A program made the position numbers and the translations under genes. The notes beneath the pieces are model-generated. The model was given only the letters and a program-made list of their open reading frames with translations. It was not told the origin of the DNA and ran no database searches. Positions 4,136 to 30,851 of a stretch of 32,000 bases of DNA are shown in pieces. Position 1 is the stretch's first letter; each line of letters begins with the position of its first letter. This stretch comes from Mucisphaera calidilacus (lineage in GTDB: Bacteria > Planctomycetota > Phycisphaerae > Phycisphaerales > Phycisphaeraceae), in assembly GCF_007748075.1 (NCBI RefSeq), contig NZ_CP036280.1, forward strand, positions 570,001 through 602,000, written 5' to 3'.

Positions 4136-4492
4136 ATGGCATTGGAATGCGAACTGGTCGAAGGCGTTGAAGACCTCACCATCGTCCGATTGGTCGGCAA
4201 ACTGGATATCCAGGGCACGAACAACATCAACATGAAGTTCCACGCCAAGACCGCCGCCCGCCAGAAACCCACCGTCATCGACCTCGAGGGCGTCACCTTC
4301 GTCAGTTCCATCGGCATCGGCATGCTCGTCACCTGCGCCACCTCCCTCAAACGCAAGGGCTGCGAGGTCATCCTCGCCGCCGCCAAACCCGAGATCGAAG
4401 AGGTCTTCCGCGCCTCCCGGCTCGACGCCTTCTTCCGCATCGTCGACACCGTCGAAGAAGCCGAATCCCTCCTCCGCGCCGACGCAGCCTGA
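4136..4492 (+). CDS. STAS-domain anti-sigma-factor antagonist (SpoIIAA-like)
   Basis: 118 aa. 'VIDLEGVTFVSSIGIGMLV' matches the STAS phospho-serine loop/helix pattern. A GAGGAG Shine-Dalgarno sequence lies upstream of the ATG. Confidence 0.85.
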   Translation: MALECELVEGVEDLTIVRLVGKLDIQGTNNINMKFHAKTAARQKPTVIDLEGVTFVSSIGIGMLVTCATSLKRKGCEVILAAAKPEIEEVFRASRLDAFFRIVDTVEEAESLLRADAA

Positions 4493-4580
4493 TCCGTCCG
4501 CACCACGACCCGACCCCGCTCAGGACTCACTCAACCCCGATCCCAACCCCACGCCCACGCCACGACTCGCTAGAATCGTG

Positions 4581-4599
4581 AACAGATGATCTGTGCGCA
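4581..4599. promoter_or_regulatory. operator candidate AACAGATGATCTGTGCGCA (contains the 13-nt palindrome ACAGAT-g-ATCTGT) just downstream of a TAGAAT -10-like box (4571-4576)
   Basis: It is 17/19 identical to 29151-29169. It lies about 90 nt upstream of the first sulfatase operon. Confidence 0.5.
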
Positions 4600-7694: not shown

Positions 7695-9038
7695 TCAGTG
7701 CAACGCGTCGACGGGGGCGATCACCATCGTCTCCGGCGCGACCCACGAGCCATCCATCGTGTCGTCCGTCTCCGCTCGCCACGCGTCCATCTGCCCACGC
7801 AGGTCGTCCGCCACCGCGCGATAGCCCGGGTCATCGATCCGGTTCACCAGCGCCGTCGGGTCAAACAGCAGGTCGAACAACGCCTCCTCCTCCTGCGCCT
7901 GCTCCGGCCAGCCGCCGGCCACGAGCCGTGACTTGCTCACGCTCCGGTCGCAGTTGGGCAGCACCGGGTGGTCGTGCGTGATCAGCCGCCGGATGTAGAG
8001 ATAACGATCCGTGCGCACCGAACGCGCCGGCTCCACGCACACGTGCACGTTCGTCTCGCAGAAGACCGAATCGCGGTGATGATCCTCGGCAGCGGCATCA
8101 CTCAGCAACGCCTCAAACCCGCTGCCACGGCTCCACGACGGCACCGCCACGCCCGCCATCGCGCAAAGCGTCGCAGCAACATCGATGTGACTCACCAACG
8201 CATCACGCACCACGCCCTCCGCGACACCCGGACCTCGCATCATCAGCAGCACGCCCGTGCCCTGGTCGCTGAGCGTCCCCTTCATCCGCGGAAACGCGAT
8301 CCCGTGGTCCGTCGTGATGATCACGATCGTCCGGCCCGCATGACCCGAACGCTCCAGCGCATCAAAGATCCGGCCGTAATAACCGTCCAGACGCTGCGCC
8401 GACAGACAGTAATCCGCGATGTCCTCGCGCGTCTCAGGCGTGTCCGGCAGGGGGGTGGGCACCGCGACGTAACGACCGTCGCCCTCCGGCCGCTTCGAGT
8501 TGCTGTGCCACGCGACCTCCTCATCACCTCGCTCCGTCTTGCCCGTCCGGTGCGTCACGAAGAATCCAGCGTCGAGAAAAAAGGGCCTGCTGCCATCCTG
8601 TTCCGAAAGAAAAGCCTCCACCGCCGGGGCCACTTCCTCGTCACGCTCGATCGCGCCCGCGGCCGACGCGGTCAGGTCCCGCTCGTACCCGTAAGCCCCG
8701 TGGTTCGTGCGCGCATCCATGACGTGCTCAAGCCCCGCGATGGCCGTCGCGTATCCCGCCTCACGCAGCACCGCCGGCAGCATCTGGCTCGGATCATTCA
8801 ACCTCGCCCCACGGTGCGTCAGGCCGAGCATCCCGTTCTCGTGCGGATAACGGCCCGTCAGCATCGCAGCACGGCTTGGCGAACACGTCGGTCCCACGCA
8901 GAACGCGCGACGAAAAACCGTCCCCTGCTCCGCAAAACGCTGCAGCGCGGGCGTCGCGACCGCGTGCCCGTAAGGCTGGATCATCCGCCCCGTGTCGTGG
9001 CTGTGCAGATAAACAATGTTCGGGCGATCCGTGGCCAT
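7695..9038 (-). CDS. sulfatase (C-S-P-S-R type), no signal peptide
   Basis: 'NIVYLHSHDTGR', 'GPTCSPSRAAMLTGRYPHENG' and 'IITTDHG'. It starts 3 nt downstream of the preceding minus-strand sulfatase. Confidence 0.9.
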   Translation of the reverse strand: MATDRPNIVYLHSHDTGRMIQPYGHAVATPALQRFAEQGTVFRRAFCVGPTCSPSRAAMLTGRYPHENGMLGLTHRGARLNDPSQMLPAVLREAGYATAIAGLEHVMDARTNHGAYGYERDLTASAAGAIERDEEVAPAVEAFLSEQDGSRPFFLDAGFFVTHRTGKTERGDEEVAWHSNSKRPEGDGRYVAVPTPLPDTPETREDIADYCLSAQRLDGYYGRIFDALERSGHAGRTIVIITTDHGIAFPRMKGTLSDQGTGVLLMMRGPGVAEGVVRDALVSHIDVAATLCAMAGVAVPSWSRGSGFEALLSDAAAEDHHRDSVFCETNVHVCVEPARSVRTDRYLYIRRLITHDHPVLPNCDRSVSKSRLVAGGWPEQAQEEEALFDLLFDPTALVNRIDDPGYRAVADDLRGQMDAWRAETDDTMDGSWVAPETMVIAPVDALH

Positions 9039-9041
9039 GAC

Positions 9042-10421
9042 CTACTCCCAGATAACCCGCGTGAACTCGTTGTGAAGCGGGTCGCCGATCGACGACATCC
9101 ACGAACCCATCCCCGCACGAAGCCGCCGCAGCGGCTCCGCGCACGACGCGTCATCGATCCGGTTCACCAGCTCGCCCGGGTCCGCGTCCAGGTCGTAGAA
9201 CTCGTCCTGCGCCGTCGCGTTCCAGACGTACTTCCAACGCTTGTCCCGCGCCATCCGCTCGCTGTACAGGCCGAACTGACAACCCTGATACTGGCTGAAG
9301 GCCATCTCACGCTCCGCCACCTCGCCACGCAGCAGCTTCGACAGGTCCACGCCCTCGTAGTGCTCCGGCACGTCGATGCCCGCAGCGACCAGCAGACTCG
9401 TCGCCAGGTCCAGCTCGTGGTGCACGAACGCGTCGCACACCCGACCCGGCTCGGTCACGCCCGGCCAACGCATCATCATCGGCACGCGCAGCACGTCGTC
9501 GTACATCATGAAGTGCTTGTCCATCATGCCGTGCCCGCCGCACAGGTCGCCATGGTCCGTCGAGTAGACCACCACCGTGTTCTCGGCCAGACCCAGACGG
9601 TCCAGCGTCTCGAGAATCATCTCGACCTGCCGGTCCAGCAGCGTGATGTCCGCCAGGTACCGGCTCACCACCGGCGCCCAGTGCTCCCACGACCACCCGT
9701 CGACGCCCCAGATCCGCTGCTGACGACCCTGCACCCACGGCTTGCCCGCCAACCCGTCCGCAAAACTCGGCCACGGCTCGATCTTCTCCGGCGGGTACAG
9801 GTCCTTCATCGCCGGCGGGATCATGTTCGGCAGGTGCGGCTCCGACGGGTCCCAACGCACGAAAAACGGCGCGTCACGCTCCGAAAACTTCTCGATGCAA
9901 CGAACCGCGTGACGACCACCCCACGCCACCCGGTGCTGCTCCGGCGTGATCGCCTCGTCAATCTCACCGAACCACCCGTTCTTCCGCACACGCTCCGGCA
10001 GACCCTGCTCCGCACGCCACGCGTCGTACCCACGCTCCTCCGGGATGTACTCCTCCATCCCCCAGCTGTCCGGCTCGCCGGGCGTCTCGCCATGCCACTT
10101 GCCGATGTGCGCCGTGCTGTATCCCGCCTCCACCAGCAACTTCGGCATCAGCGGGCCCTCCGGCTTGTCGATCGGTCGGTAGATCTCCGTCGGCGGGATG
10201 CTCATGCACCCGTGCTGCGTCGGCCACTGCCCCGTGATCAGACACCCGCGCGCCGGCGAACAGATCGGCGCCGGCGTGAACGCGTGCGAAAAATCCACAC
10301 CCTCCCGGCACAACCGGTCCATCCCAGGCGTCTGCAACAGGCCGTGCCCGTGCGCGCCCACACAGTCATAACGATGCTGATCCGAGTGAATCAACACGAT
10401 ATTCATACGCTCGCCCGGCAT
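9042..10421 (-). CDS. sulfatase (C-S-P-A-R type), no signal peptide
   Basis: 'MNIVLIHSDQHRYD', 'PAPICSPARGCLITGQWP' and 'VVYSTDHGDLCGGHG'. I prefer the start at 10421 (MPGERMNIV...), which has GAGAGG 7 nt upstream. The 10472 start would overlap the upstream gene. Confidence 0.9.
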   Translation of the reverse strand: MPGERMNIVLIHSDQHRYDCVGAHGHGLLQTPGMDRLCREGVDFSHAFTPAPICSPARGCLITGQWPTQHGCMSIPPTEIYRPIDKPEGPLMPKLLVEAGYSTAHIGKWHGETPGEPDSWGMEEYIPEERGYDAWRAEQGLPERVRKNGWFGEIDEAITPEQHRVAWGGRHAVRCIEKFSERDAPFFVRWDPSEPHLPNMIPPAMKDLYPPEKIEPWPSFADGLAGKPWVQGRQQRIWGVDGWSWEHWAPVVSRYLADITLLDRQVEMILETLDRLGLAENTVVVYSTDHGDLCGGHGMMDKHFMMYDDVLRVPMMMRWPGVTEPGRVCDAFVHHELDLATSLLVAAGIDVPEHYEGVDLSKLLRGEVAEREMAFSQYQGCQFGLYSERMARDKRWKYVWNATAQDEFYDLDADPGELVNRIDDASCAEPLRRLRAGMGSWMSSIGDPLHNEFTRVIWE

Positions 10422-10431
10422 CACAAACCTC

Positions 10432-12180
10432 TCAATCCTGCGCGGCCAACAACCGAACCCGTGCGACGCCATGGTTCGGCGACTCGCACTCCTTCAACTC
10501 ATAAAGATAAACATCCTCCGGCGACTGTGTCGGCCAGCGGAACGTCGTCTTCGGGTCCACCTCACGGTCCGACTTGAGAATCACACGGTGACCCTCGCCC
10601 GAACCCGGCAACCCCAGCAGGTGATCCACCTGACCCGATGTCACAAAACCACCCTCAACCGAGGCGCTCACCCCGACGTCCTCGTCACGATGGCGGTGCG
10701 TCAGCAGCCACGGCCCCAGGAACAGGTTCACCTCGTCCCCCGCTCTCGCCGTCTTCATCCAGCGAGGCGCCACGCCCCGCGACGCTGGCCAGATCCGATA
10801 TCCGTAACGCACCGTCACCACGCCCTCGCCCGCCACCTTCAATTCCGTCCAGTAGATCTCATCACCCCCCGCGTCCGGCTGACCCTCCAGCTTCATCCAG
10901 AAAGGCGTCGCGATCCGGATCGACCGAATCGTCACGCCGCCCTTGAGCACGATCCGCAACTCGCCCACGTGATCGTCGCGCTCGATCACCACCTGCTGCT
11001 CGCCGAACACAAACGTCCCGCTCACCGGGTGCAGGATCGTCAGCGTCTCGCCGTCGCACCGAACCATCTGCCCCGCGCCCGCGATCAGGCCATACGGACC
11101 AAACAGCGAGCAGCACCACGGCGCTTCCTTGCCCATCTGCGCGTAATACCCCTCGAGGTCCACGCTCCCGAAACCCCCGTTGTAGGTCTGGTTGTAGAAA
11201 ATCTGGTTCTCGAGGTTCAGGATCGAACGACGCAGCCACCGCTCATGGCCCGTCGCGTCGTACATGCCGAGCGTCAGCAGGTGCCAGTCAAACAGCGAGC
11301 ACCCCTCGTCAACCAGCTCCCAGGTCTCGTCCGGCTTCACCAGCCGCTCGGGAATACCACCCGTCTCCATCACCCACAGGTCATGGAACCGATCCAACTC
11401 CGACGCCAAATCGTCAATCGCCGCCTTGTCGCCTCGCTCGCGGTAGTACGCCAGCATCCCGCGACGCGTCATCAGATACATATGCGAGTGATCCGCCTCC
11501 TCCAGTGGCGTCACGTGCTCAATCATCTCACCCGCCAGCGACAGGTAACGCTCGTCACCCGTCAGCCGGTAAAGCGTCATCACACCGTCCAGGCCGTGAT
11601 AGAAACAGCTCACCGTCGAGGCGTACCCCCGCGAGATCGTCTCGCCCTGATCCCACGCGTGCCACGCCGGCGCGATCCGCAGGTAGCACTCACCCAACGC
11701 CTTGACCGCCTCCGTCACCGCCGGGTCGCCGAACGTCAACGCGTACTGCCCCAACGCCTTGAGCGTCCACCCATTGCCGTACGCCTTCTCCGGGTTCAGC
11801 GGCTCGTCATCCCACGCCAGCGAACCAAAACTCCCGTCCTGGTTCTGCAGCTTCAGCATCCCCGCCACCACACCCGCCAGGTGCTCGGGAGGCGACGCCT
11901 CCCCGCTGTACACATGCGTCTCCGCCAGGATCCACCGGCCCGCGATGTCACCATGAAACCGCGGGAAATTCGACCAGCACCCCGGCTCCGCACACACCTG
12001 CGTCAGCAGATATTGCTCGCAGTAGGGCACCTGGCTCTCGATCCGGTCGATCGACCGCCCCAGCCGATACCCCATCTCGCCGCTCAACTGAAATCGCGTC
12101 GGGCTCCCCTTCGGCATGGCCAGGGAGCTCGTGCCGAACCAGAGCGTCGGGGCGTGCGTGATATCGCGGATACTCTTCAT
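10432..12180 (-). CDS. GH127/DUF1680-like glycoside hydrolase (beta-L-arabinofuranosidase / 3,6-anhydro-D-galactosidase family), no signal peptide
   Basis: 'LVDEGCSLFDW' (E-x-C) and, 62 aa later, 'APWCCSLFGP' (C-C) reproduce the Glu/Cys3 zinc and nucleophile arrangement I recall for HypBA1. The (alpha/alpha)6-like N-half includes 'GDIAGRWILAE'. I prefer the start at ATG 12180 (MKSIRD...). The 12240 start would run into the promoter region. Confidence 0.65.
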   Translation of the reverse strand: MKSIRDITHAPTLWFGTSSLAMPKGSPTRFQLSGEMGYRLGRSIDRIESQVPYCEQYLLTQVCAEPGCWSNFPRFHGDIAGRWILAETHVYSGEASPPEHLAGVVAGMLKLQNQDGSFGSLAWDDEPLNPEKAYGNGWTLKALGQYALTFGDPAVTEAVKALGECYLRIAPAWHAWDQGETISRGYASTVSCFYHGLDGVMTLYRLTGDERYLSLAGEMIEHVTPLEEADHSHMYLMTRRGMLAYYRERGDKAAIDDLASELDRFHDLWVMETGGIPERLVKPDETWELVDEGCSLFDWHLLTLGMYDATGHERWLRRSILNLENQIFYNQTYNGGFGSVDLEGYYAQMGKEAPWCCSLFGPYGLIAGAGQMVRCDGETLTILHPVSGTFVFGEQQVVIERDDHVGELRIVLKGGVTIRSIRIATPFWMKLEGQPDAGGDEIYWTELKVAGEGVVTVRYGYRIWPASRGVAPRWMKTARAGDEVNLFLGPWLLTHRHRDEDVGVSASVEGGFVTSGQVDHLLGLPGSGEGHRVILKSDREVDPKTTFRWPTQSPEDVYLYELKECESPNHGVARVRLLAAQD

Positions 12181-12208
12181 CGATGAAAACCTCTGTCTGA
12201 AAGGAAGG

Positions 12209-12362
12209 CAGATACACCCGACCCATGCCGGATCTGACACAAACCAGATTCTATGTCATAAGTCAGATCGCGTGTATCCCCCGTTTCCCCGTAGATACGC
12301 CGCAGATCTCGAACAGATATAAAACGCTGCAGAGCAGATCGTTGAATGCAATAGCATCAGAT
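12209..12362 (+). repeat. array of seven same-strand CAGAT(C/A/T/G) pentamers in the divergent GH127 / GH38 control region
   Basis: CAGAT starts at 12209, 12245, 12264, 12303, 12314, 12335 and 12358. Opposite-strand copies (ATCTG) lie at 12232-12236 and 12460-12464. Confidence 0.6.
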
Positions 12363-12624
12363 GTGTCCCGCATCGCATCCCCAGCGGCCATCCCACGCGA
12401 TCCTCCTCCCTCCCGCCTCGCGTGTCCCTCGCCCGAAACTCTCTGTCCACATTCCTTGCATCTGTCCTAAGTCAGGGGTATGCTCACCCCTCTGGAGTCA
12501 TCATGTTTTTTGTCGTCTCACGGCCTGACAGTCCATCCGAACAGACCGACCTGCCCCCGATCGCGGCCCCTGGCCGCATCAGCACCGCTCTGGTCACGAT
12601 GAGCCCGTCCGGCGAGGACCCCTC

Positions 12625-15447
12625 ATGGGCGTAAAAACACCCCCTAAACCCATCGCCTGGCCCACCTACACGCCTCAGCGGCTCTCATCCTCCGCACAGA
12701 AGGCCGCCCTCTACGTCCTCTCAAGCCACTGGGACCGTGAGTGGTACCAGACCTTCGAAACCTTCCGCTACCGCCTCGTCAACCTCCTCGACGACGTCCT
12801 CGCCCGCCAGGACAGCGGAGAGATCGACGGACCCTTCTACTGCGACGGACAGGCCATCATCCTCGAGGATTACCTCGATATCCGGCCCGATGAACGCCAA
12901 CGCATCGCCGCACGCCTCCAGAACCGACAACTCGTCGCGGGGCCCTGGTACGTCCTGCCCGACGAGTTCCTCGTCTCCGGCGAATCCCTCATCCGCAACA
13001 TCCAGATCGGTCGCGAACTCGTCGAATCCCTCGGCGGACGCCCCTCCGACTGCGGTTTCCTCTGCGACCTCTTCGGCAGCAACGCCCAGATGCCCCAACT
13101 CCTCAAGGCCTTCGGCATCGAGGTCGCCTACGTCTGGCGCGGCACCAACCACCACGACCAGAGACTCCTCTGGTGGGTCGGCGCCGACGGCACACGCATC
13201 CCCAGCTACCGCTTCGGAACCAATGGCTACTGGGGATACGCCGTCAACGTCCGCGGCCACTGCGACCACGAAGATCACATCGAAGCCGAAAAGACCCTCC
13301 CCGAGCGATTCTGGGAGTACGTCGAAAAAGAAGCCGCCGCCACACCGATCGACGCCGTCCTCGTCTTCGACGGCGCCGACCACGCCGGCTTCGACCCCCA
13401 TGCCTATAGCCAACTCAAAGCCCTCGCCGGCTCCGAGCACGGCCACGACTACGACATATGCCACGTCGAACTCGACGACCACGCCGCCGAGATCCTCCGC
13501 CACACCGACCGCATCACCACCGAGGTCCACGGCGAGCTCTACGAGTCAGCCAAACACCCCTTCGACCTCGACCAGCAGGCACTCGTCGGCGGAACCCTCG
13601 CCAGCCGCATCCACATCAAACAGTTCAACGCACGCTGCGAATGGCTCCTCACACGCTGGGCCGAGCCCGCAGCGACCCTCGCCACATGCCGCCTGGGCGA
13701 CCGCTACCCCGCCGACTTCCTCAAACGCGCCTGGAAACACCTCATCCAGAACCACCCCCACGACTCCATCTGCGGGTGCAGCATCGACCGCGTTCACGAG
13801 GACATGATCTACCGCTTCAACCAGTGCGAGGACCTTGCCGAGCAGGTCACCCAGAACGCACTCCGCCACCTCGCCGAGGCCGCCGTCGGCAGTCCGGGCG
13901 TCCCCGAAGACGAAACACGCATCGTCGTCTTCAACCCACTGCCCGAAACACTCTCGGCCGTCGTCGACGTCGACGCCCTTATCCCCGACTGGAAACAACC
14001 GCCCAACGGCGGACAACCCGCCAAAGAACGGGGCCTCCCCGCGACCCCTCACGACGAACAAGGCAACCCCATCCCCTTCCAGGCGCGAAGCCTCTCGCCA
14101 ATCACCCTTCAACTCGAAACCCACAAGCACCGCGCCCCACGCTCTTACGAGGCACGCACGCTCGGACTCAGCATGCCCCTCGAACTCCCGCCCCTCGGCT
14201 GGAAAACGATCAGCCTCCGCAAGGCCAACGTCCACTGGATCCGCACCCCACGCTCCGAATCCCTCGTCCACGACGAACGAACCCTCCAGAACCAGCACCT
14301 CACCCTCAACGTCCAGTCCGACGGCACCCTCTCACTCACCGACCGCAAGACCAACGCCACCTACAACCGCCTGCTCACCCTCGAAGACGGCGCCGACGTC
14401 GGCGACGGCTGGCGCTACATCGCCCCCGCCAACGACACCGTCTCCTACACAGGCGGCAACTGCACCGGCATTACCGTCCTCGACGACGGACCCCACCTCG
14501 GACGCATCGAGATCCGCTGCCAACTCATCGTCCCCGCTCGCTACGACCGCGAGACCGCCGAACGGTCCCAACGCACCGTCACCATCGACGTCACCCACCG
14601 CGTCGCCCTCCGCGCCGACGCCCGACATGTCGAGGTCGAAACCACCATCAACAACACCGCCGAAGACCACCGCCTCCGCGTCCTCTGCCCCGTTGAAGCC
14701 CGCACCGACCACTACTGGACCGACGCACCCTTCGACACCGCGCGACGACCGATCGCGCTCAAGCCCGATCAGCACACCTGGCGCGAGCCCGAACTCGAAA
14801 CCAAGCCGCAGCAGGCATGGACCGCCGTCGCCGACGCCAACCGGGGGCTCGCCCTCGTGGCCGAGGGACTCCGCGAAACCGCCGTCCTCGACCGGCCCGA
14901 CCGCGCCATCGCCCTCACCCTCCTCCGCGCCACCCAAAAAACCGCCTTCACCAGCGGCGAACCCGGCGGCCAGCTCCCCGGCGAACACACCTTCCGCTAC
15001 TGGATCACCCCCGCCGAAGAAAAACCCGACGCCGCCGAGCTCCACAACCTCGCCACCCTCCTCAACGCTCGCGTCCGCTCCGTCAGCCTCCTGCCCGGCA
15101 TCCACGCCCGGGGCAGCGGATACCCCGTCGGCCCCGACACGTCGCCTACCGCCCCAGGCATCGCCATCACGGGGCCCGCACGACTCTCAGCCCTCCAGGT
15201 CCGCGGCGACGAACTCGAAATCCGCCTCTTCAACCCCCTCGACACGCCCGCCTCCGGCACCATCCAGCTCCCCGAACCGCAGAAAAACCCGGGGCAGCCG
15301 CCCGCGGCACGCTCCGTCTCGCTCACAGGCACCACCCTCGAACCCATCGACGTCGAACAGGGCCGCATCGCCATCGAACTCAGCCCCAAACAGATCATCA
15401 CCCTCCGTGTCACCGGCCTCATCCAGAACCCTGTGCACAGCAATTGA
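12625..15447 (+). CDS. GH38 alpha-mannosidase family protein, no signal peptide
   Basis: 'YVLSSHWDREWYQTF', 'GPWYVLPDEFLVSGESLIRNIQIG' and 'NHPHDSICGCS' are typical GH38 N-domain/linker motifs. 940 aa. A GAGG Shine-Dalgarno sequence lies 7 nt upstream. Confidence 0.85.
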   Translation: MGVKTPPKPIAWPTYTPQRLSSSAQKAALYVLSSHWDREWYQTFETFRYRLVNLLDDVLARQDSGEIDGPFYCDGQAIILEDYLDIRPDERQRIAARLQNRQLVAGPWYVLPDEFLVSGESLIRNIQIGRELVESLGGRPSDCGFLCDLFGSNAQMPQLLKAFGIEVAYVWRGTNHHDQRLLWWVGADGTRIPSYRFGTNGYWGYAVNVRGHCDHEDHIEAEKTLPERFWEYVEKEAAATPIDAVLVFDGADHAGFDPHAYSQLKALAGSEHGHDYDICHVELDDHAAEILRHTDRITTEVHGELYESAKHPFDLDQQALVGGTLASRIHIKQFNARCEWLLTRWAEPAATLATCRLGDRYPADFLKRAWKHLIQNHPHDSICGCSIDRVHEDMIYRFNQCEDLAEQVTQNALRHLAEAAVGSPGVPEDETRIVVFNPLPETLSAVVDVDALIPDWKQPPNGGQPAKERGLPATPHDEQGNPIPFQARSLSPITLQLETHKHRAPRSYEARTLGLSMPLELPPLGWKTISLRKANVHWIRTPRSESLVHDERTLQNQHLTLNVQSDGTLSLTDRKTNATYNRLLTLEDGADVGDGWRYIAPANDTVSYTGGNCTGITVLDDGPHLGRIEIRCQLIVPARYDRETAERSQRTVTIDVTHRVALRADARHVEVETTINNTAEDHRLRVLCPVEARTDHYWTDAPFDTARRPIALKPDQHTWREPELETKPQQAWTAVADANRGLALVAEGLRETAVLDRPDRAIALTLLRATQKTAFTSGEPGGQLPGEHTFRYWITPAEEKPDAAELHNLATLLNARVRSVSLLPGIHARGSGYPVGPDTSPTAPGIAITGPARLSALQVRGDELEIRLFNPLDTPASGTIQLPEPQKNPGQPPAARSVSLTGTTLEPIDVEQGRIAIELSPKQIITLRVTGLIQNPVHSN

Positions 15448-15646
15448 CCATGACAGATGCACAGTCACACAGCCTTGAGCGGGTTAGACTCCCGGCCTGA
15501 CACAGACAGTTTTATCGAATCGCGAATCGTCTATAAACGCTTTATAAGAAAGGTATAAGACAAATACGGCGAAACATGCCCCGGGCAGGCCTGTCCTGAT
15601 ATGCCTGCTGAAAGGGCCAGAATTCACGCGAATACGTGAAAATGAG

Positions 15647-15674
15647 TTGACAACGCCGCCATCTGCCTTATAAC
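15647..15674 (+). promoter_or_regulatory. sigma70-like promoter of regulator 1: TTGACA-16 nt-TATAAC, with the -10 ending 6 nt before the ATG
   Basis: TTGACA at 15647-15652 and TATAAC at 15669-15674, with the ATG at 15681 and no Shine-Dalgarno sequence. ATCTG (15661-15665) and CAGAT (15674-15678) bracket the -10 as an inverted pair. Confidence 0.5.
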
Positions 15675-15680
15675 AGATAT

Positions 15681-16814
15681 ATGAGCCTGCTGGAACTCAA
15701 CAACAACTCCGACACGCCCCTCGTGCAGCAGATTCAGACGAATCTCCGCTCACGCATCCTGCGTGACGAGTTCCCCCCCGGCTACAAGCTCCCCAGCATC
15801 CGCCAGCTCAGCCATGACCTCGGCTGCTCCACCGGCATCGTCGAACGCGCTGTCTCCACACTCACCGCCGAGGGCCTGCTCAAGTCCGAGCCCCGACGAG
15901 GTGTCTACGTCCGCAAGCCCCGCGAAAAACGCGTCAAGTCCAAGGACATCGCCCTCATCCTCCCCGGACTCCGGCTCGAGCACATGGCCAGCATGAGCGG
16001 AGGCGTCCACGCAGCCCTCGCCGGGTCCGACTACCGACTCATCATCCAGTCCGCCGACAACGACTTCGACGACGAAATCCACCTCCTCGAATACCTCGCC
16101 CACGACAACCTCGTCGGCGTCGTCATCTGCCCGCCCACCGCCGACTCCTACGCCGAGCCCATCAAGGAGTTCGTCAGCCGACGCGAGATCCCCCTCGTCC
16201 TCGCCACGCACCGGCTCGTCGGCCTCTCCAGCGTCGACGCCGTCGCCATCGACGAGTTCGAGCACGGCCGCGCCGCCGTCGACTACCTGCTCAGCAAAGG
16301 ACACCGCGAGATCGCCCTCATCGGGGGACACGGGCTCTCCCTCTCCAGCCGGCAGACCCTCGAGGGCATCGCCGCGGGCCTCCGACGATACCGCCTCGCC
16401 ATGTCCGACCTCCACAAGATCGACGTCGACGTCCTCGACCTCAACGACGAAGAGCCCTGGCTCAACGGACAGGTCAGCACCGAACGGTTCCTGCGCGAAC
16501 ACAACCCGGGCATCACCGCCATCCTCTCGCTCGGCAACTACAGCACCATCGGCGCCTACCGCGCCGTCCAGAGCCTCGGCCTCAGCATCCCCGACGATAT
16601 CTCCATCCTCAGCACCGGAAGCGACCTCCAGGCCTTCGCCCTGCTCCAGCCCAGCATCACCGTCTTCACCGACCAGCTCCACGCCACCTGCGAGCGGGCC
16701 ACCTTCCGACTCCTCCAACGCATCGAAAACCCCGGCATGCAGCCCGAGGCCATCCAGATACCGCCACAGCTCATCGAACGCGAAAGCGTTCGGAAGATTC
16801 CCGTCTCGAAGTAA
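15681..16814 (+). CDS. AraR-type chimeric regulator (GntR winged-HTH + LacI/PBP1 sugar-binding domain), copy 1
   Basis: N-terminus 'LPSIRQLSHDLGCSTGIVERAVSTLTAEGLLKSEPRRGVYV' is a GntR HTH. The remainder ('DIALILPG...VGVVICPP...IPLVLA...GHREIALIGG') is a LacI-type periplasmic-binding fold. Confidence 0.85.
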   Translation: MSLLELNNNSDTPLVQQIQTNLRSRILRDEFPPGYKLPSIRQLSHDLGCSTGIVERAVSTLTAEGLLKSEPRRGVYVRKPREKRVKSKDIALILPGLRLEHMASMSGGVHAALAGSDYRLIIQSADNDFDDEIHLLEYLAHDNLVGVVICPPTADSYAEPIKEFVSRREIPLVLATHRLVGLSSVDAVAIDEFEHGRAAVDYLLSKGHREIALIGGHGLSLSSRQTLEGIAAGLRRYRLAMSDLHKIDVDVLDLNDEEPWLNGQVSTERFLREHNPGITAILSLGNYSTIGAYRAVQSLGLSIPDDISILSTGSDLQAFALLQPSITVFTDQLHATCERATFRLLQRIENPGMQPEAIQIPPQLIERESVRKIPVSK

Positions 16815-27911: not shown

Positions 27912-28007
27912 CTCATTCCTCCTTACAAAGAAAACCAGAATGGCCAAAGTGAATCCATGACATGAAAAAACCAGATACACAAGGGCACACAGCCCTGAAA
28001 CCACAAA

Positions 28008-29138
28008 CTAAACCGAACCACGCGGGGCACCGATGCTCCCACGCTCACGCAACACAGGCTGCAACTGCACCGACCGATACGTCGGCTGATCGCCCTCGAT
28101 CAACTGCTGCAGCAGAAACACCGACCGCCGTCCGATCGCTTCCGTCGGGCGATCCAGCATCGTGATCCCCTGATCCATCAGACCAAGACCCTCCATGTCG
28201 CCGCCCATCCCCACGATCGACAAGTCCTCCGGCACACGGATCCCCCTGCGACGAGCCGCCAGCAACGCACCCGCCGCACGGTTCGGCGTCACCGCCACCA
28301 ACGCCGTCAACTCCGGATAACGCTCCAGAATCACCTCCGCCGTCCGAATCCCGTCCTCAAACGGGTTCTCGCCATCCAGCGTCGCGGCATTGCCCTCGAC
28401 CACCGGCACGTCGCTCAGCTTCCGACCAATCTCCGCCAGCGCCGACCCCATCCCCAGTCGAAGCTCGCCACTCGTCCGTGCGTCCGTGTTGTTGTCCAGG
28501 ACCCCGATCTGGCGATGACCCGCGTCCGTCAGCAACGCGATCGCCTGACGACCCATCTCAAACTCGTCCGTCACCACCGCCGGGGCGCTGTTGCTCTCGT
28601 CCACCGTGATCAGCGACTGCACACAGGGCAAACCACGCTCACGCAACGTCTGAATCGCCTCCGCGTAGCGCTTGAAAGGCGGCGGCACGATGATCACACC
28701 CGAAACAAACGCACGGTCCAGACGCGACAGAATGTTCATCTGCTCGTCGAAATTCGCCTCCGCGGCCTCGATCACCAGACGGTAATGCGTCCCCGATAAA
28801 CCATCGTGAACGCCCTTCATTAAACGCGTCACGTAATGCGAGCAGACCATCGGCAGCAGCAGGGCAATATCGTGCACTTTGAAGTCCGGTTTCGAGACGA
28901 AAACACCGCGGCGGGCATCCACACGCAGGTAACCGTCCGCCGTCAGGTCGTTGATCGCCTGGCGAACCACCGCCATGCTCACCGACATCTCCTCGCTCAA
29001 CTGACGCATGCTCGGCAACTGCTCGCCGTGACCGATCAACTCTCCCTCGATGTGCTCCCGGAGCACATCATGCACCTGTCGCGCAAGCGAAACAGGCTTA
29101 TTCGGATCAATCACGGCGTGAAAACGAGCCTTAGACAT
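28008..29138 (-). CDS. AraR-type chimeric regulator (GntR winged-HTH + LacI/PBP1 sugar-binding domain), copy 2
   Basis: 'LPSMRQLSEEMSVSMAVVRQAINDLTADGYLRVDARRGVFV' followed by 'DIALLLP...SGVIIVPP...GHRQIGVL'. It aligns along its whole length with 15681..16814, at roughly one third identity by eye. Confidence 0.85.
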   Translation of the reverse strand: MSKARFHAVIDPNKPVSLARQVHDVLREHIEGELIGHGEQLPSMRQLSEEMSVSMAVVRQAINDLTADGYLRVDARRGVFVSKPDFKVHDIALLLPMVCSHYVTRLMKGVHDGLSGTHYRLVIEAAEANFDEQMNILSRLDRAFVSGVIIVPPPFKRYAEAIQTLRERGLPCVQSLITVDESNSAPAVVTDEFEMGRQAIALLTDAGHRQIGVLDNNTDARTSGELRLGMGSALAEIGRKLSDVPVVEGNAATLDGENPFEDGIRTAEVILERYPELTALVAVTPNRAAGALLAARRRGIRVPEDLSIVGMGGDMEGLGLMDQGITMLDRPTEAIGRRSVFLLQQLIEGDQPTYRSVQLQPVLRERGSIGAPRGSV

Positions 29139-29145
29139 CCACCTA

Positions 29146-29173
29146 ACTATAACAGATCAACTGTGCGCAGCAA
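29146..29173 (-). promoter_or_regulatory. sigma70-like promoter of regulator 2 (minus strand): TTGCTG-16 nt-TATAGT, with the -10 ending 7 nt before the ATG
   Basis: The minus strand reads ttgctg-cgcacagttgatctgt-tatagt-taggtgg-ATG. The 16-nt spacer is the operator candidate. Confidence 0.4.
29151..29169. promoter_or_regulatory. operator candidate AACAGATCAACTGTGCGCA in the divergent regulator-2 / sulfatase-5 intergenic region
   Basis: It is 17/19 identical to 4581-4599 and contains ACAG-N5-CTGT. It fills the spacer of the predicted minus-strand promoter of regulator 2. Confidence 0.5.
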
Positions 29174-29312: not shown

Positions 29313-30770
29313 ATGAACAAAGATCATCCGAACATCCTCTACATCTTTGCCGACGACTGGGGCTATGGCGACATCTCCTGCCTCAACCCCGACTCCAAAA
29401 TCCACACCCCCTGCACCGACAAGCTCGCCGAGCAGGGCATGACCTTCACCGACGCCCACAGCAGCTCGGCCGTCTGCACGCCCAGCCGGTACAGCGTCCT
29501 CACCGGAAGATACTGCTGGCGCGGACCCCTCAAGTCCAGCGTCCTCGGCGGATGGGACGAACTGCTCATCGAGGACGACCGAATGACCGTCGCCTCGCTC
29601 CTCCGCGACAAGGGCTACCGGACCGCCTGCATCGGCAAGTGGCACCTCGGACTCGGATGGCACCACAACACACAGCCCCCCACAAGACACAACGGCTTCT
29701 ACGAGTGGAACGACGATCGCATCGACGTCGACTTCACCAAAACACTCACCAAGGGACCCCACACCGTCGGTTTCGACGTCTCCTTCATCATCCCCGCATC
29801 ACTCGACATCGTCCCCTACTGCTTCATCGAGAACGGACACGTCCACGACCTGCCCATGCGACACGTCGAAGACTCGCCCCGACCCGCCGAGTACCGAGGC
29901 GGACCCTGCGCACGCGGACTCCAGCACGAGACCGTCCTCCTCGAGTTCACCAACCGCGCCGAACAGTTCATCGCCGACCACGCACGCGAGTCCCCCGACA
30001 AGCCCTTCTTCCTCTACCTCCCGCTCCCCTCGCCGCACACCCCCCACGTCCCCCGCGAACCCTTCCAGGGCACCAGCGAATGCGGCGCCTACGGCGACTA
30101 CGTCGTCGAGCACGACTGGTCCATCGGACGCGTCCTCGAAACACTCGAACGATCCGGACTCGCCGACGACACACTCGTCATCGTCACCTCCGACAACGGT
30201 GCCCACATCCGCGGACAGGGCATGAAGGCCGACATGCCCTTCGACTTCGAGCAGCAGTACGGACATCGCTCCAACCACATCTACCGCGGACAGAAAACCG
30301 ACGCGTGGGACGGCGGGCACCGAATCCCCTACATCGCTCGATGGCCAGGCGTCATCGAACCCGGATCCACCTGCGACCACCCCATCTGCCTCACCGACCT
30401 CCTCGCCACCGTCGCCGAACTCCACGGCGAAGACCTGCCCGACGACGCCGGCGAAGACAGCCTCTCCACGCTCCCGCTCATGCACCAGCAACAACCCGGC
30501 AGCGGACGACAGGCCATCGTGCACCACAGCGGAGGCGGCGAATTCGCCATCCGGCAAGGCAACTGGAAACTCATCGACTGCCCCGGCTCAGGCGGGTGGT
30601 CCATGCCCCCCGGCAAGGTCCCCGACGACGCGCCACCACGACAACTCTACAACCTCGACAACGACATCGAAGAACAACACAACCTCATCGGACAACACCC
30701 CGACGTCGAACAACGACTCCTCACGCTCCTCGATCAGTACAAGACCAACAACCGGAGCGTCGACCGCTGA
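29313..30770 (+). CDS. arylsulfatase-A-like sulfatase (C-T-P-S-R type), no signal peptide
   Basis: 'NILYIFADDWGYGD', 'SSAVCTPSRYSVLTGRY', 'GKWHLG' and 'VIVTSDNG'. Confidence 0.9.
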   Translation: MNKDHPNILYIFADDWGYGDISCLNPDSKIHTPCTDKLAEQGMTFTDAHSSSAVCTPSRYSVLTGRYCWRGPLKSSVLGGWDELLIEDDRMTVASLLRDKGYRTACIGKWHLGLGWHHNTQPPTRHNGFYEWNDDRIDVDFTKTLTKGPHTVGFDVSFIIPASLDIVPYCFIENGHVHDLPMRHVEDSPRPAEYRGGPCARGLQHETVLLEFTNRAEQFIADHARESPDKPFFLYLPLPSPHTPHVPREPFQGTSECGAYGDYVVEHDWSIGRVLETLERSGLADDTLVIVTSDNGAHIRGQGMKADMPFDFEQQYGHRSNHIYRGQKTDAWDGGHRIPYIARWPGVIEPGSTCDHPICLTDLLATVAELHGEDLPDDAGEDSLSTLPLMHQQQPGSGRQAIVHHSGGGEFAIRQGNWKLIDCPGSGGWSMPPGKVPDDAPPRQLYNLDNDIEEQHNLIGQHPDVEQRLLTLLDQYKTNNRSVDR

Positions 30771-30851
30771 CCACAACACCACCCCGAGGCCCGCGCATCA
30801 GCCAGACCCCGCCCACAGAATCCCGCATCGATCTCTAGCGATGCCGACGGC

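Follow-up and report, generated by a model that had tools for sequence, protein, structure and literature searches.

The stretch of DNA considered here is a 32,000-nt window of the Mucisphaera calidilacus genome (contig NZ_CP036280.1, positions 570,001 to 602,000; coordinates below are those of the window), and our subject is an array of CAGAT pentamers at 12209-12362 within it. The entire array is intergenic, bounded by a GH127-like/sulfatase operon, which is read on the minus strand, and by a plus-strand GH38 mannosidase gene, and the plus-strand gene order continues rightward as GH38 alpha-mannosidase, a regulator that we call Reg1, and a DUF1559/N-methyl protein. Reg1 and its paralogue Reg2, the latter divergent from another sulfatase gene, are regulators of AraR type, joining a GntR winged helix-turn-helix (wHTH) to a LacI-type periplasmic-binding-protein (PBP) domain, and each matches PF00392 (GntR) along with PF13377, PF00532 and PF13407 in Pfam. 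Given this domain architecture and the operator matches described below, the nearby GntR/LacI-type regulators would be the natural binding proteins for CAGAT sites, as a first-pass annotation made from the sequence had supposed. Genes, predicted operators, promoters and their counterparts in related genomes (loci labelled L002 to L008) are collected in Table 1.

Table 1. Genes, CAGAT copies, predicted operators and promoters in the window, with operator-type sites from related loci
Feature	Position	Strand	Sequence	Remarks
GH127-like gene	10432..12183	-		First in operon with two sulfatase genes; ATG at 12183 matches NCBI protein P0001 (MKSIRD...)
Two sulfatase genes of the GH127 operon	9042-10472 and 7695-9038	-		
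GH38 alpha-mannosidase gene	12625..15447	+		
Reg1, AraR-type regulator	15681..16814	+		GntR wHTH and LacI-type PBP domain; presumed CAGAT-arm binder
Reg2, paralogous AraR-type regulator	28008..29138	-		33% identical to Reg1
O0, possible weak operator	12195..12213		GTCTG-N9-CAGAT	Right arm is CAGAT copy 1 (12209); abuts the GH127 ribosome-binding site
Oa, predicted operator	12232..12249		ATCTGACACAAACCAGAT	Perfect ATCTG-N8-CAGAT arms; ATCTG at 12232 plus CAGAT copy 2 (12245)
Putative -10 of GH127-sulfatase operon	12248..12253	-	TAGAAT	At the Oa/Ob junction; predicted
Ob, predicted operator	12251..12268		CTATGTCATAAGTCAGAT	Includes CAGAT copy 3 (12264)
TAGAT	12292..12296	+	TAGAT	4/5 match to CAGAT, in 11-bp register with the next two copies
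Orphan CAGAT copy 4	12303..12307	+	CAGAT	No ATCTG partner at N6-N9
Orphan CAGAT copy 5	12314..12318	+	CAGAT	Within AACAGATATA, which recurs at 15672
Orphan CAGAT copy 6	12335..12339	+	CAGAT	
Orphan CAGAT copy 7	12358..12362	+	CAGAT	
GH38 promoter, predicted	12456..12484	+	TTGCAT-17-TATGCT	Conserved in L002 as TTGCATCTGCCATAAGTCAGCGGTA
Oc, predicted operator	12460..12477		ATCTGTCCTAAGTCAGGG	In the GH38 promoter spacer; includes ATCTG at 12460
Reg1 leaderless promoter, predicted	15647..15683	+	TTGACA-16-TATAAC-6-ATG	
Od, predicted operator	15661..15678		ATCTGCCTTATAACAGAT	Perfect arms; between -35 and ATG of Reg1
19-nt operator, predicted	29151..29169		AACAGATCAACTGTGCGCA	Fills the spacer of Reg2's own leaderless promoter
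19-nt operator, predicted	4581..4599		AACAGATGATCTGTGCGCA	Starts 5 nt after TAGAAT (4571-4576), upstream of a sulfatase operon
L002, GH38 promoter			ATCTGCCATAAGTCAGCG	Block 26/29 identical (own count) in an otherwise diverged spacer
L003			ATCTGTATAATACAGAT	Also TTGTATGATACAGGAT upstream of GH38
L004, upstream of regulator			TTGTATGATACAGGG	
L005, regulator promoter			ATCTGTATGATACAC	
L006, regulator promoter			ATCTGTCATAATACAGAC and ATCTGTCATAGAATAGAT	
L008, upstream of regulator			TGTATGGTACA	

Seven copies of CAGAT begin on the plus strand, at 12209, 12245, 12264, 12303, 12314, 12335 and 12358, exactly where the first-pass annotation had listed them, and the reverse complement ATCTG is found at the two places that it gave (12232-12236 and 12460-12464). 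Its rough expectation of 0.1-0.2 copies agrees with the ~0.17 CAGAT per 154 nt that we calculate from local composition, and two longer matches that it reported are also present, AACAGATATA at 12312 recurring at 15672 and CAGATACAC at 12209 recurring at 27972; because shared 9-10-mers among CAGAT sites are only slightly above chance for ~18 sites (a rough estimate), these were not used as evidence. Statistically the array proved real, as had been proposed, in shuffle tests of both 12200-12370 and the full 441-nt spacer. Among 20000 dinucleotide-preserving shuffles of the 171-nt segment 12200-12370, none contained any pentamer seven times, the maximum being six copies, seen in six shuffles, and seven CAGAT were found in 0/20000 shuffles of the whole 441-nt spacer, where at least seven non-overlapping copies of any pentamer fell within 154 nt in only four of the 20000. 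Elsewhere in the window's intergenic DNA (~2.9 kb, GC 0.42-0.69) CAGAT occurs seven times with both strands summed, a background density, so that the pentamer is not generally dense in the window's AT-richer spacers, which was the local form of the objection that had been anticipated. Together, the shuffle results and this background density elsewhere indicate a real array and no effect of composition.

Across the whole window CAGAT is mildly over-represented (66 copies versus 45 +/- 6 in shuffles) and asymmetric between strands, with 44 copies on the plus and 22 on the minus strand, or 37 and 20 once the array is excluded. The sole pentamer cluster in the window that is denser than the CAGAT array is formed by ACAAC, with nine copies in 154 nt (30641-30790), and it was rejected as a regulatory element, being inside the C-terminal coding region of a sulfatase where, judged by eye, AAC and CAA codons recur. 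A coding origin of the CAGAT array itself was likewise rejected: the open reading frames (ORFs) that cross the spacer have a third-position GC content (GC3) of 0.57-0.60 versus 0.84-0.89 in real genes, thus no GC3 bias, they have no Pfam match, and each of the three frames holds CAGAT copies.

Evaluating the arrangement of the copies, we found that the first-pass description of a direct-repeat array, with dyads not the layout, does not simply apply. The pairs 12232/12245 and 12251/12264 make up two abutting 18-bp inverted repeats, Oa and Ob, mirror-arranged around 12250 within a 71-bp imperfect palindrome, and this dyad geometry is what one expects for a dimeric repressor and matches sites conserved elsewhere, leaving only four copies (12303-12358) as true same-strand orphans. 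Transcription of the GH127 operon probably starts within Oa, and Ob, whose arms are CTATG at 12251 and CAGAT at 12264, agrees with the family consensus ATCTGTCATAAGTCAGAT at 16/18 positions (by-eye count). On the minus strand the junction between the two reads ATCTGACTTATGACA-TAGAAT-CTGGTTTGTGTCAGAT, so the pair Oa and Ob sits astride a good -10 hexamer and also the start site that is predicted for the GH127 operon (~12241 on the minus strand); the plus strand accordingly reads ATTCTA at 12248-12253, and one CAGAT copy does overlap this plausible -10, as had been suggested. The palindrome that encloses both operators spans ~71 bp (12209-12279, centre 12250), with arms GATACACCCGA/TCGCGTGTATC and GATCTGAC/GTCAGATC and a 9-nt insertion in its left arm, and it explains why the region folds better than its shuffles, as RNA and as DNA. 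A search for everted dyads (CAGAT-N1-ATCTG) in the array gave a single junction with two mismatches, at 12245, and this layout was discarded.

The same dyad recurs at the other control regions of the gene cluster. Perfect ATCTG-N8-CAGAT has two matches in 32 kb, at 12232 and 15661, versus an estimated ~0.03 expected, and both fall in control regions of the GH127/GH38/Reg1 cluster, with two-mismatch versions at 12251-12268 and 12460-12477 that have the inner sequence TGTCMTAAGTCAG in common. The last of these begins within the TTGCAT hexamer (12456-12461), whose overlap with the ATCTG at 12460 had been pointed out previously. Core promoter elements, at positions predicted from sequence and conservation, are overlapped by Od, by Oc and by the Oa/Ob pair, an arrangement consistent with repression that includes an autoregulatory site; for GH38 the predicted start lies at ~12490 on the plus strand. 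The first CAGAT copy, at 12209, lies within the extended half-site AAGGCAGAT, a 9-mer identical to the left half-site of Od, the predicted autoregulatory operator of Reg1. Generalizing these half-sites to AWRNCAGAT, we counted eight matches in the window versus 1.3 expected (0/100 shuffles), and every one of them is in non-coding control DNA; the motif was partly derived from window sites, and the matches at 12205, 15450, 27968 and 29149 are independent of that derivation. GntR operators bear the signature (N)x-GT-N(0-15)-AC-(N)x. In M. calidilacus the operators have palindromic ATCTG/CAGAT arms and an inner TGyCMTAAGTCA, a pseudo-palindrome without a clean GT...AC pair, and the orthologous loci carry TGTAT-N-ATACA, in which GT...AC is clear.

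To place these sites in an evolutionary context, we compared them with related loci, of which the closest available is L002, a Phycisphaeraceae metagenome-assembled genome with 60% amino-acid identity in GH127 and 75% in the Reg1 orthologue. Both the GH127-like protein and Reg1 are 100% identical to NCBI proteins of M. calidilacus, and their best non-self matches in the protein database likewise stood at 60% (GH127) and 75% (Reg1). More distant regulator orthologues are 40-45% identical; a scan of genome contigs gave two distant loci, and a metagenome scan added one true orthologue, L008. The wHTH of Reg1 is almost identical to that of the L002 orthologue, and the same DNA specificity is therefore expected for the two. 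Linkage of GH38 with the regulator is seen in L002, L003, L004 and L007, and operator-type sites occur at regulator or GH38 promoters in L002, L003, L004, L005, L006 and L008, including the block TTGCATCTGCCATAAGTCAGCGGTA that L002 keeps upstream of GH38; counted by assembly, ATCTG-N7/8-CAGAT palindromes are placed in this way in five other Phycisphaerae assemblies. When the foreign L002 and L006 sites served as the sole templates, the four best places in the window were 12460, 15661, 12232 and 12251, which are the starts of Oc, Od, Oa and Ob, and the CATAGAAT of the Oa/Ob junction is also the -10 at the L006 regulator promoter, where it is embedded in the operator. We conclude from the comparison that CAGAT is the conserved outer arm of the operator half-site in this regulator family, whose predicted palindromic operator is ATCTG-N7/8-CAGAT with an ideal form of approximately ATCTGTCATAAGTCAGAT.

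A further feature common to M. calidilacus, L002, L005 and L006 is the layout of the regulator promoter, TTGAC(A/T)-16/17-TAT(A/G)A(C/T) or TAGAAT-5/6-start codon, within which the operator sits. These promoters lie at 15647-15683 and 29136-29173 (minus strand) in the window, at 15179-15215 in L002, at 9966-10003 in L005 and at 4731-4766 in L006. Across the four genomes, promoters of AraR-type regulators have a -35 of TTGACA, TTGACT or TTGCTG, a spacer of 16-17 nt, a -10 of TATAAC, TATGAT, TAGAAT or TATAGT and a start codon after 5-7 nt, and the regulator genes thus appear leaderless.

The motif statistics, the operator architecture and this cross-genome conservation are direct observations. 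Building on them, we interpret the array as a dense cluster of half-sites for the local AraR-type repressor, a reading that we hold to be probable, with Reg1 the likely binder and Reg2 a regulator that may contribute. Roughly half of the array is then an ordinary double operator over a promoter, and the four partner-less copies come in addition to it. From the sequence we infer binding by Reg1, repression, the positions of promoters and start sites, and any role of the orphans, and the model runs as follows. When the inducing sugar is absent, Reg1 dimers would occupy Oa and Ob, straddling TAGAAT and the start of the GH127-sulfatase operon and so repressing it; Reg1 on Oc, in the spacer of the GH38 promoter, would repress GH38; and Reg1 on Od, in its own leaderless promoter, would provide autoregulation. 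The CAGAT at 12209 would serve as a further good half-site (AAGGCAGAT), and the orphans at 12303-12358, phased at ~11 bp, would most likely be auxiliary low-affinity contacts that raise local occupancy or cooperativity. They might also help to bridge to Oc, ~209 bp away; the Ob-Oc distance of 209 bp corresponds to ~19.9 helical turns, and looping between the two is conceivable, if speculative.

The orphans themselves are non-random, since four copies fall within 81 nt and 0/20000 shuffles reach four, and they match the pentamer of the operator arm exactly. Counted from the TAGAT at 12292, that copy and the four orphans stand at 0, 11, 22, 43 and 66 nt, a spacing that fits best to a period of 10.9-11 bp (R = 0.98). 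Cooperative or oligomeric binding may take place at the orphans. Several results nonetheless count against assigning the whole array to the repressor. The four orphans have neither a partner arm at N6-N9 nor conserved flanks; a dimer could touch each of them through one wHTH only, and as their binder Reg1 and Reg2 are indistinguishable. The bias in orientation (7/8 copies on one strand) is suggestive and goes no further, helical phasing over the whole array is not significant (P = 0.15), and the phasing of the last five copies (P ~0.005) belongs to a subset chosen post hoc. No comparable CAGAT cluster occurs in L002, L003 or L004. At the promoter level, the proposed GH127 promoter has a poor -35, TACACG, and a scanner for consensus sigma-70 promoters and terminators made no call in the GH127/GH38 spacer; it also missed the Reg1 promoter, because it demands a T at -10 position 6.

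These results leave room for other accounts of the partner-less copies. The four orphans, and perhaps the copy at 12209 too, could be non-functional debris left by local duplication or slippage, or by half-site turnover after the inversion that gave rise to this divergent spacer, with only Oa, Ob and Oc functional. Conservation of the array in relatives, on which the first-pass annotation had made its proposal depend, does not extend to L002, itself distant by the identities of the flanking proteins (60% and 75%). In that genome GH127 and GH38 are co-directional (10001-14994), whereas in M. calidilacus GH127 is inverted relative to GH38 (10432-15447 region), divergent from it and fused to the sulfatase operon, which makes the spacer that bears the array a lineage-specific, evolutionarily young junction, as the debris account would have it. 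The lack of flanking conservation around the orphans fits as well, and short internal repeats (CAGATCGCG/CAGATCTCG, AGATACACC/AGATACGCC and TGTCATAAGTCAG/TGTCCTAAGTCAG) and the 71-bp imperfect palindrome suggest local duplication. However, Tandem Repeats Finder at a minimum score of 30 returned no rows for the array, the spacings of the copies are irregular and do not match the internal repeats, and a pentamer that is exact in four copies amid fully divergent flanks looks like selection on the pentamer and not like recent duplication; we regard debris as an unlikely origin. A blastn-short comparison of 12184-12455 with the rest of the window and all fetched loci returned chance 10-12-mers only, so that neither tandem nor dispersed repeat elements (microsatellite, REP, MITE) are indicated, and a Pho-box identity for TGTCATAAGTCAG was dropped, as only one half matches.

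The phasing could instead reflect a second factor, such as a response regulator of OmpR/PhoB/ArcA type that activates or co-represses from upstream of the GH127 promoter and binds the (Y)AGAT copies at 12292, 12303, 12314, 12335 and 12358. These five copies are all on the same strand with the period given above, and ArcA sites consist of 2-5 direct repeats spaced 11 or 22 bp centre to centre (PMC3798270). Yet a Pfam scan of the 26 window ORFs revealed no response-regulator domain, and the 32-kb window has no other additional DNA-binding gene; the subset was picked after the fact from an array that is unphased as a whole; conservation stops at 5 nt, where response-regulator half-sites usually run to 7-10 nt; and the pentamer is the arm of the AraR-type operator, which an unrelated factor would share by coincidence. 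The earlier proposal of a response regulator as second factor consequently seems very unlikely to us. A role at the level of RNA (an RNA-binding protein that recognizes CAGAU/AUCUG repeats in a small RNA or in a long 5' leader) or of DNA methylation (CAGATC contains GATC, allowing epigenetic control) we find barely credible. Both strands do fold better than shuffles (z = -3.3 for plus, -2.1 for minus) and four GATC sites occur in ~110 nt (12231, 12266, 12305 and 12337), but the folding signal comes from the operator palindromes, no Rfam family was found (the sole hit, E = 0.85, is inside the GH38 coding region), CAGATC is present in only 3/7 copies, and the array, being upstream of the conserved GH38 promoter, would be missing from GH38 mRNA. 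With half-sites for the AraR-type repressor as our preferred explanation, a bolder form of it, which we think quite unlikely, is that the phased unidirectional arms at 12292-12362 nucleate a head-to-tail assembly of the repressor that spreads from the GH127 double operator and is coupled by looping or coating to the GH38 operator ~200 bp away. If that were true, a GntR/LacI chimera would use dyads and direct repeats in one control region, as described for MocR regulators and not for AraR-type repressors.

Besides the ATCTG-N7/8-CAGAT dyad, the window holds a second operator type, the 19-nt element AACAGATNANCTGTGCGCA, at 4581 and 29151. Two matches were found in 0/100 shuffles, and the copies are near-identical, AACAGAT(G/C)A(T/A)CTGTGCGCA, with ACAGAT contained in both. 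The element is probably the Reg2 operator. The earlier observation that CAGAT is common to the sites at both regulator promoters and forms part of this 19-nt operator was borne out, and the 19-nt type does not occur in the array, even with three mismatches allowed. Directly upstream of the sulfatase operon promoter near the 4581 copy lies a gene for a STAS-domain protein of the anti-sigma-factor antagonist type (4136-4492).

Additional sequences related to these operators and promoters were seen around the locus. A strong half-site, ATGACAGAT, at 15441-15458, comes straight after the stop codon of GH38 (TGA, 15445-15447), and its left arm is weak and shifted; the site is ~218 bp upstream of the Reg1 operator, a distance resembling the 209-bp Ob-Oc spacing. 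Upstream of a minus-strand operon that includes a gene for an SSF-family sodium:solute symporter, AAACCAGATACAC at 27968-27980 joins the Oa half-site AAACCAGAT to the CAGATACAC seen at copy 1, and could point to another regulon member. In the GH38 leader (12503-12634 in the window, 12030-12052 in L002) a T6 run is kept in both genomes. The L002 run is preceded by a GC hairpin and is scored as an intrinsic terminator; it lies just past the conserved promoter block and may therefore be an attenuator. The window also has a 43-codon upstream ORF (GC3 0.75) that overlaps the GH38 start at its end (ATGGGCGTAA) and lacks conservation in L002. For GH38 a sigma-54 promoter was also considered, by eye, and set aside because of its spacing.

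Planctomycetota, and especially Phycisphaerae, are major degraders of sulfated and mannose-rich marine glycans. A targeted literature search returned nothing on gene control by GntR-type regulators in these bacteria, and it brought up no earlier description of such a system. The locus offers a testable regulon model in which a family of AraR-type repressors is linked to GH38 mannosidases through a conserved, predicted ATCTG-N7/8-CAGAT operator, and it further contributes conserved leaderless promoters that would be autoregulated and a second, related 19-nt operator for a paralogous regulator. Searching Phycisphaerae genomes for the operator could serve to predict glycan-utilisation regulons. 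The orphan half-sites are a smaller curiosity, which, if functional, would show how repressor occupancy is tuned at a divergent promoter.

Known systems offer precedents for promoters with several operators. GntR-family MocR regulators bind 2-4 boxes in direct and/or inverted orientation at helical-turn spacing (PMC5320631). They (GabR, PdxR, TauR) resemble the present regulators in joining a GntR wHTH by a linker to a large dimeric effector domain, and they show that a GntR wHTH is able to use direct repeats; in contrast, the effector domain here is a LacI-type PBP and not aminotransferase-like, and MocR boxes come in a fixed number that orthologues keep, whereas the orphan array, with its higher copy number, is lineage-specific. 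Sites of ArcA/PhoB-type response regulators, with 2-5 direct repeats at 11-bp spacing (PMC3798270, PMC4173790), are similar in that short same-strand repeats at ~11/22-bp spacing extend from a core site, the extra repeats having been proposed to tune occupancy, but here no response regulator is nearby, the repeat is only 5 nt long and the same as the GntR-type operator arm, and phasing is confined to a subset.

The closest parallel is AraR of B. subtilis, which binds 16-bp palindromes; promoters that it represses strongly have two cooperative in-phase boxes, with looping, and its own has one (PMC1950556). At the level of domains the architecture is alike, a GntR wHTH with a GalR/LacI effector domain, and so is the organization of predicted sites, with palindromic operators, two-operator promoters, a single autoregulatory operator at the promoter of the regulator and operators that overlap core promoter elements and are linked to glycoside hydrolase/sugar-utilisation genes. 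Differences lie in the operator, here 18 bp (ATCTG-N8-CAGAT) versus the 16-bp ATTTGTACGTACAAAT of AraR; in the spacing, as the two operators of the present pair directly adjoin each other, their centres 19 bp apart, and those of AraR are about four turns apart; in the extra partner-less half-sites, four or more and all on one strand, for which PMC1950556 describes no counterpart; and in the host and targets, a member of the Planctomycetota with GH38, GH127 and sulfatase genes in place of arabinose genes. To summarize, the system as read from its sequence would work like AraR-type repression, from which it differs in the length and sequence of its predicted operators, in their abutting arrangement and in the orphan half-sites on one strand.

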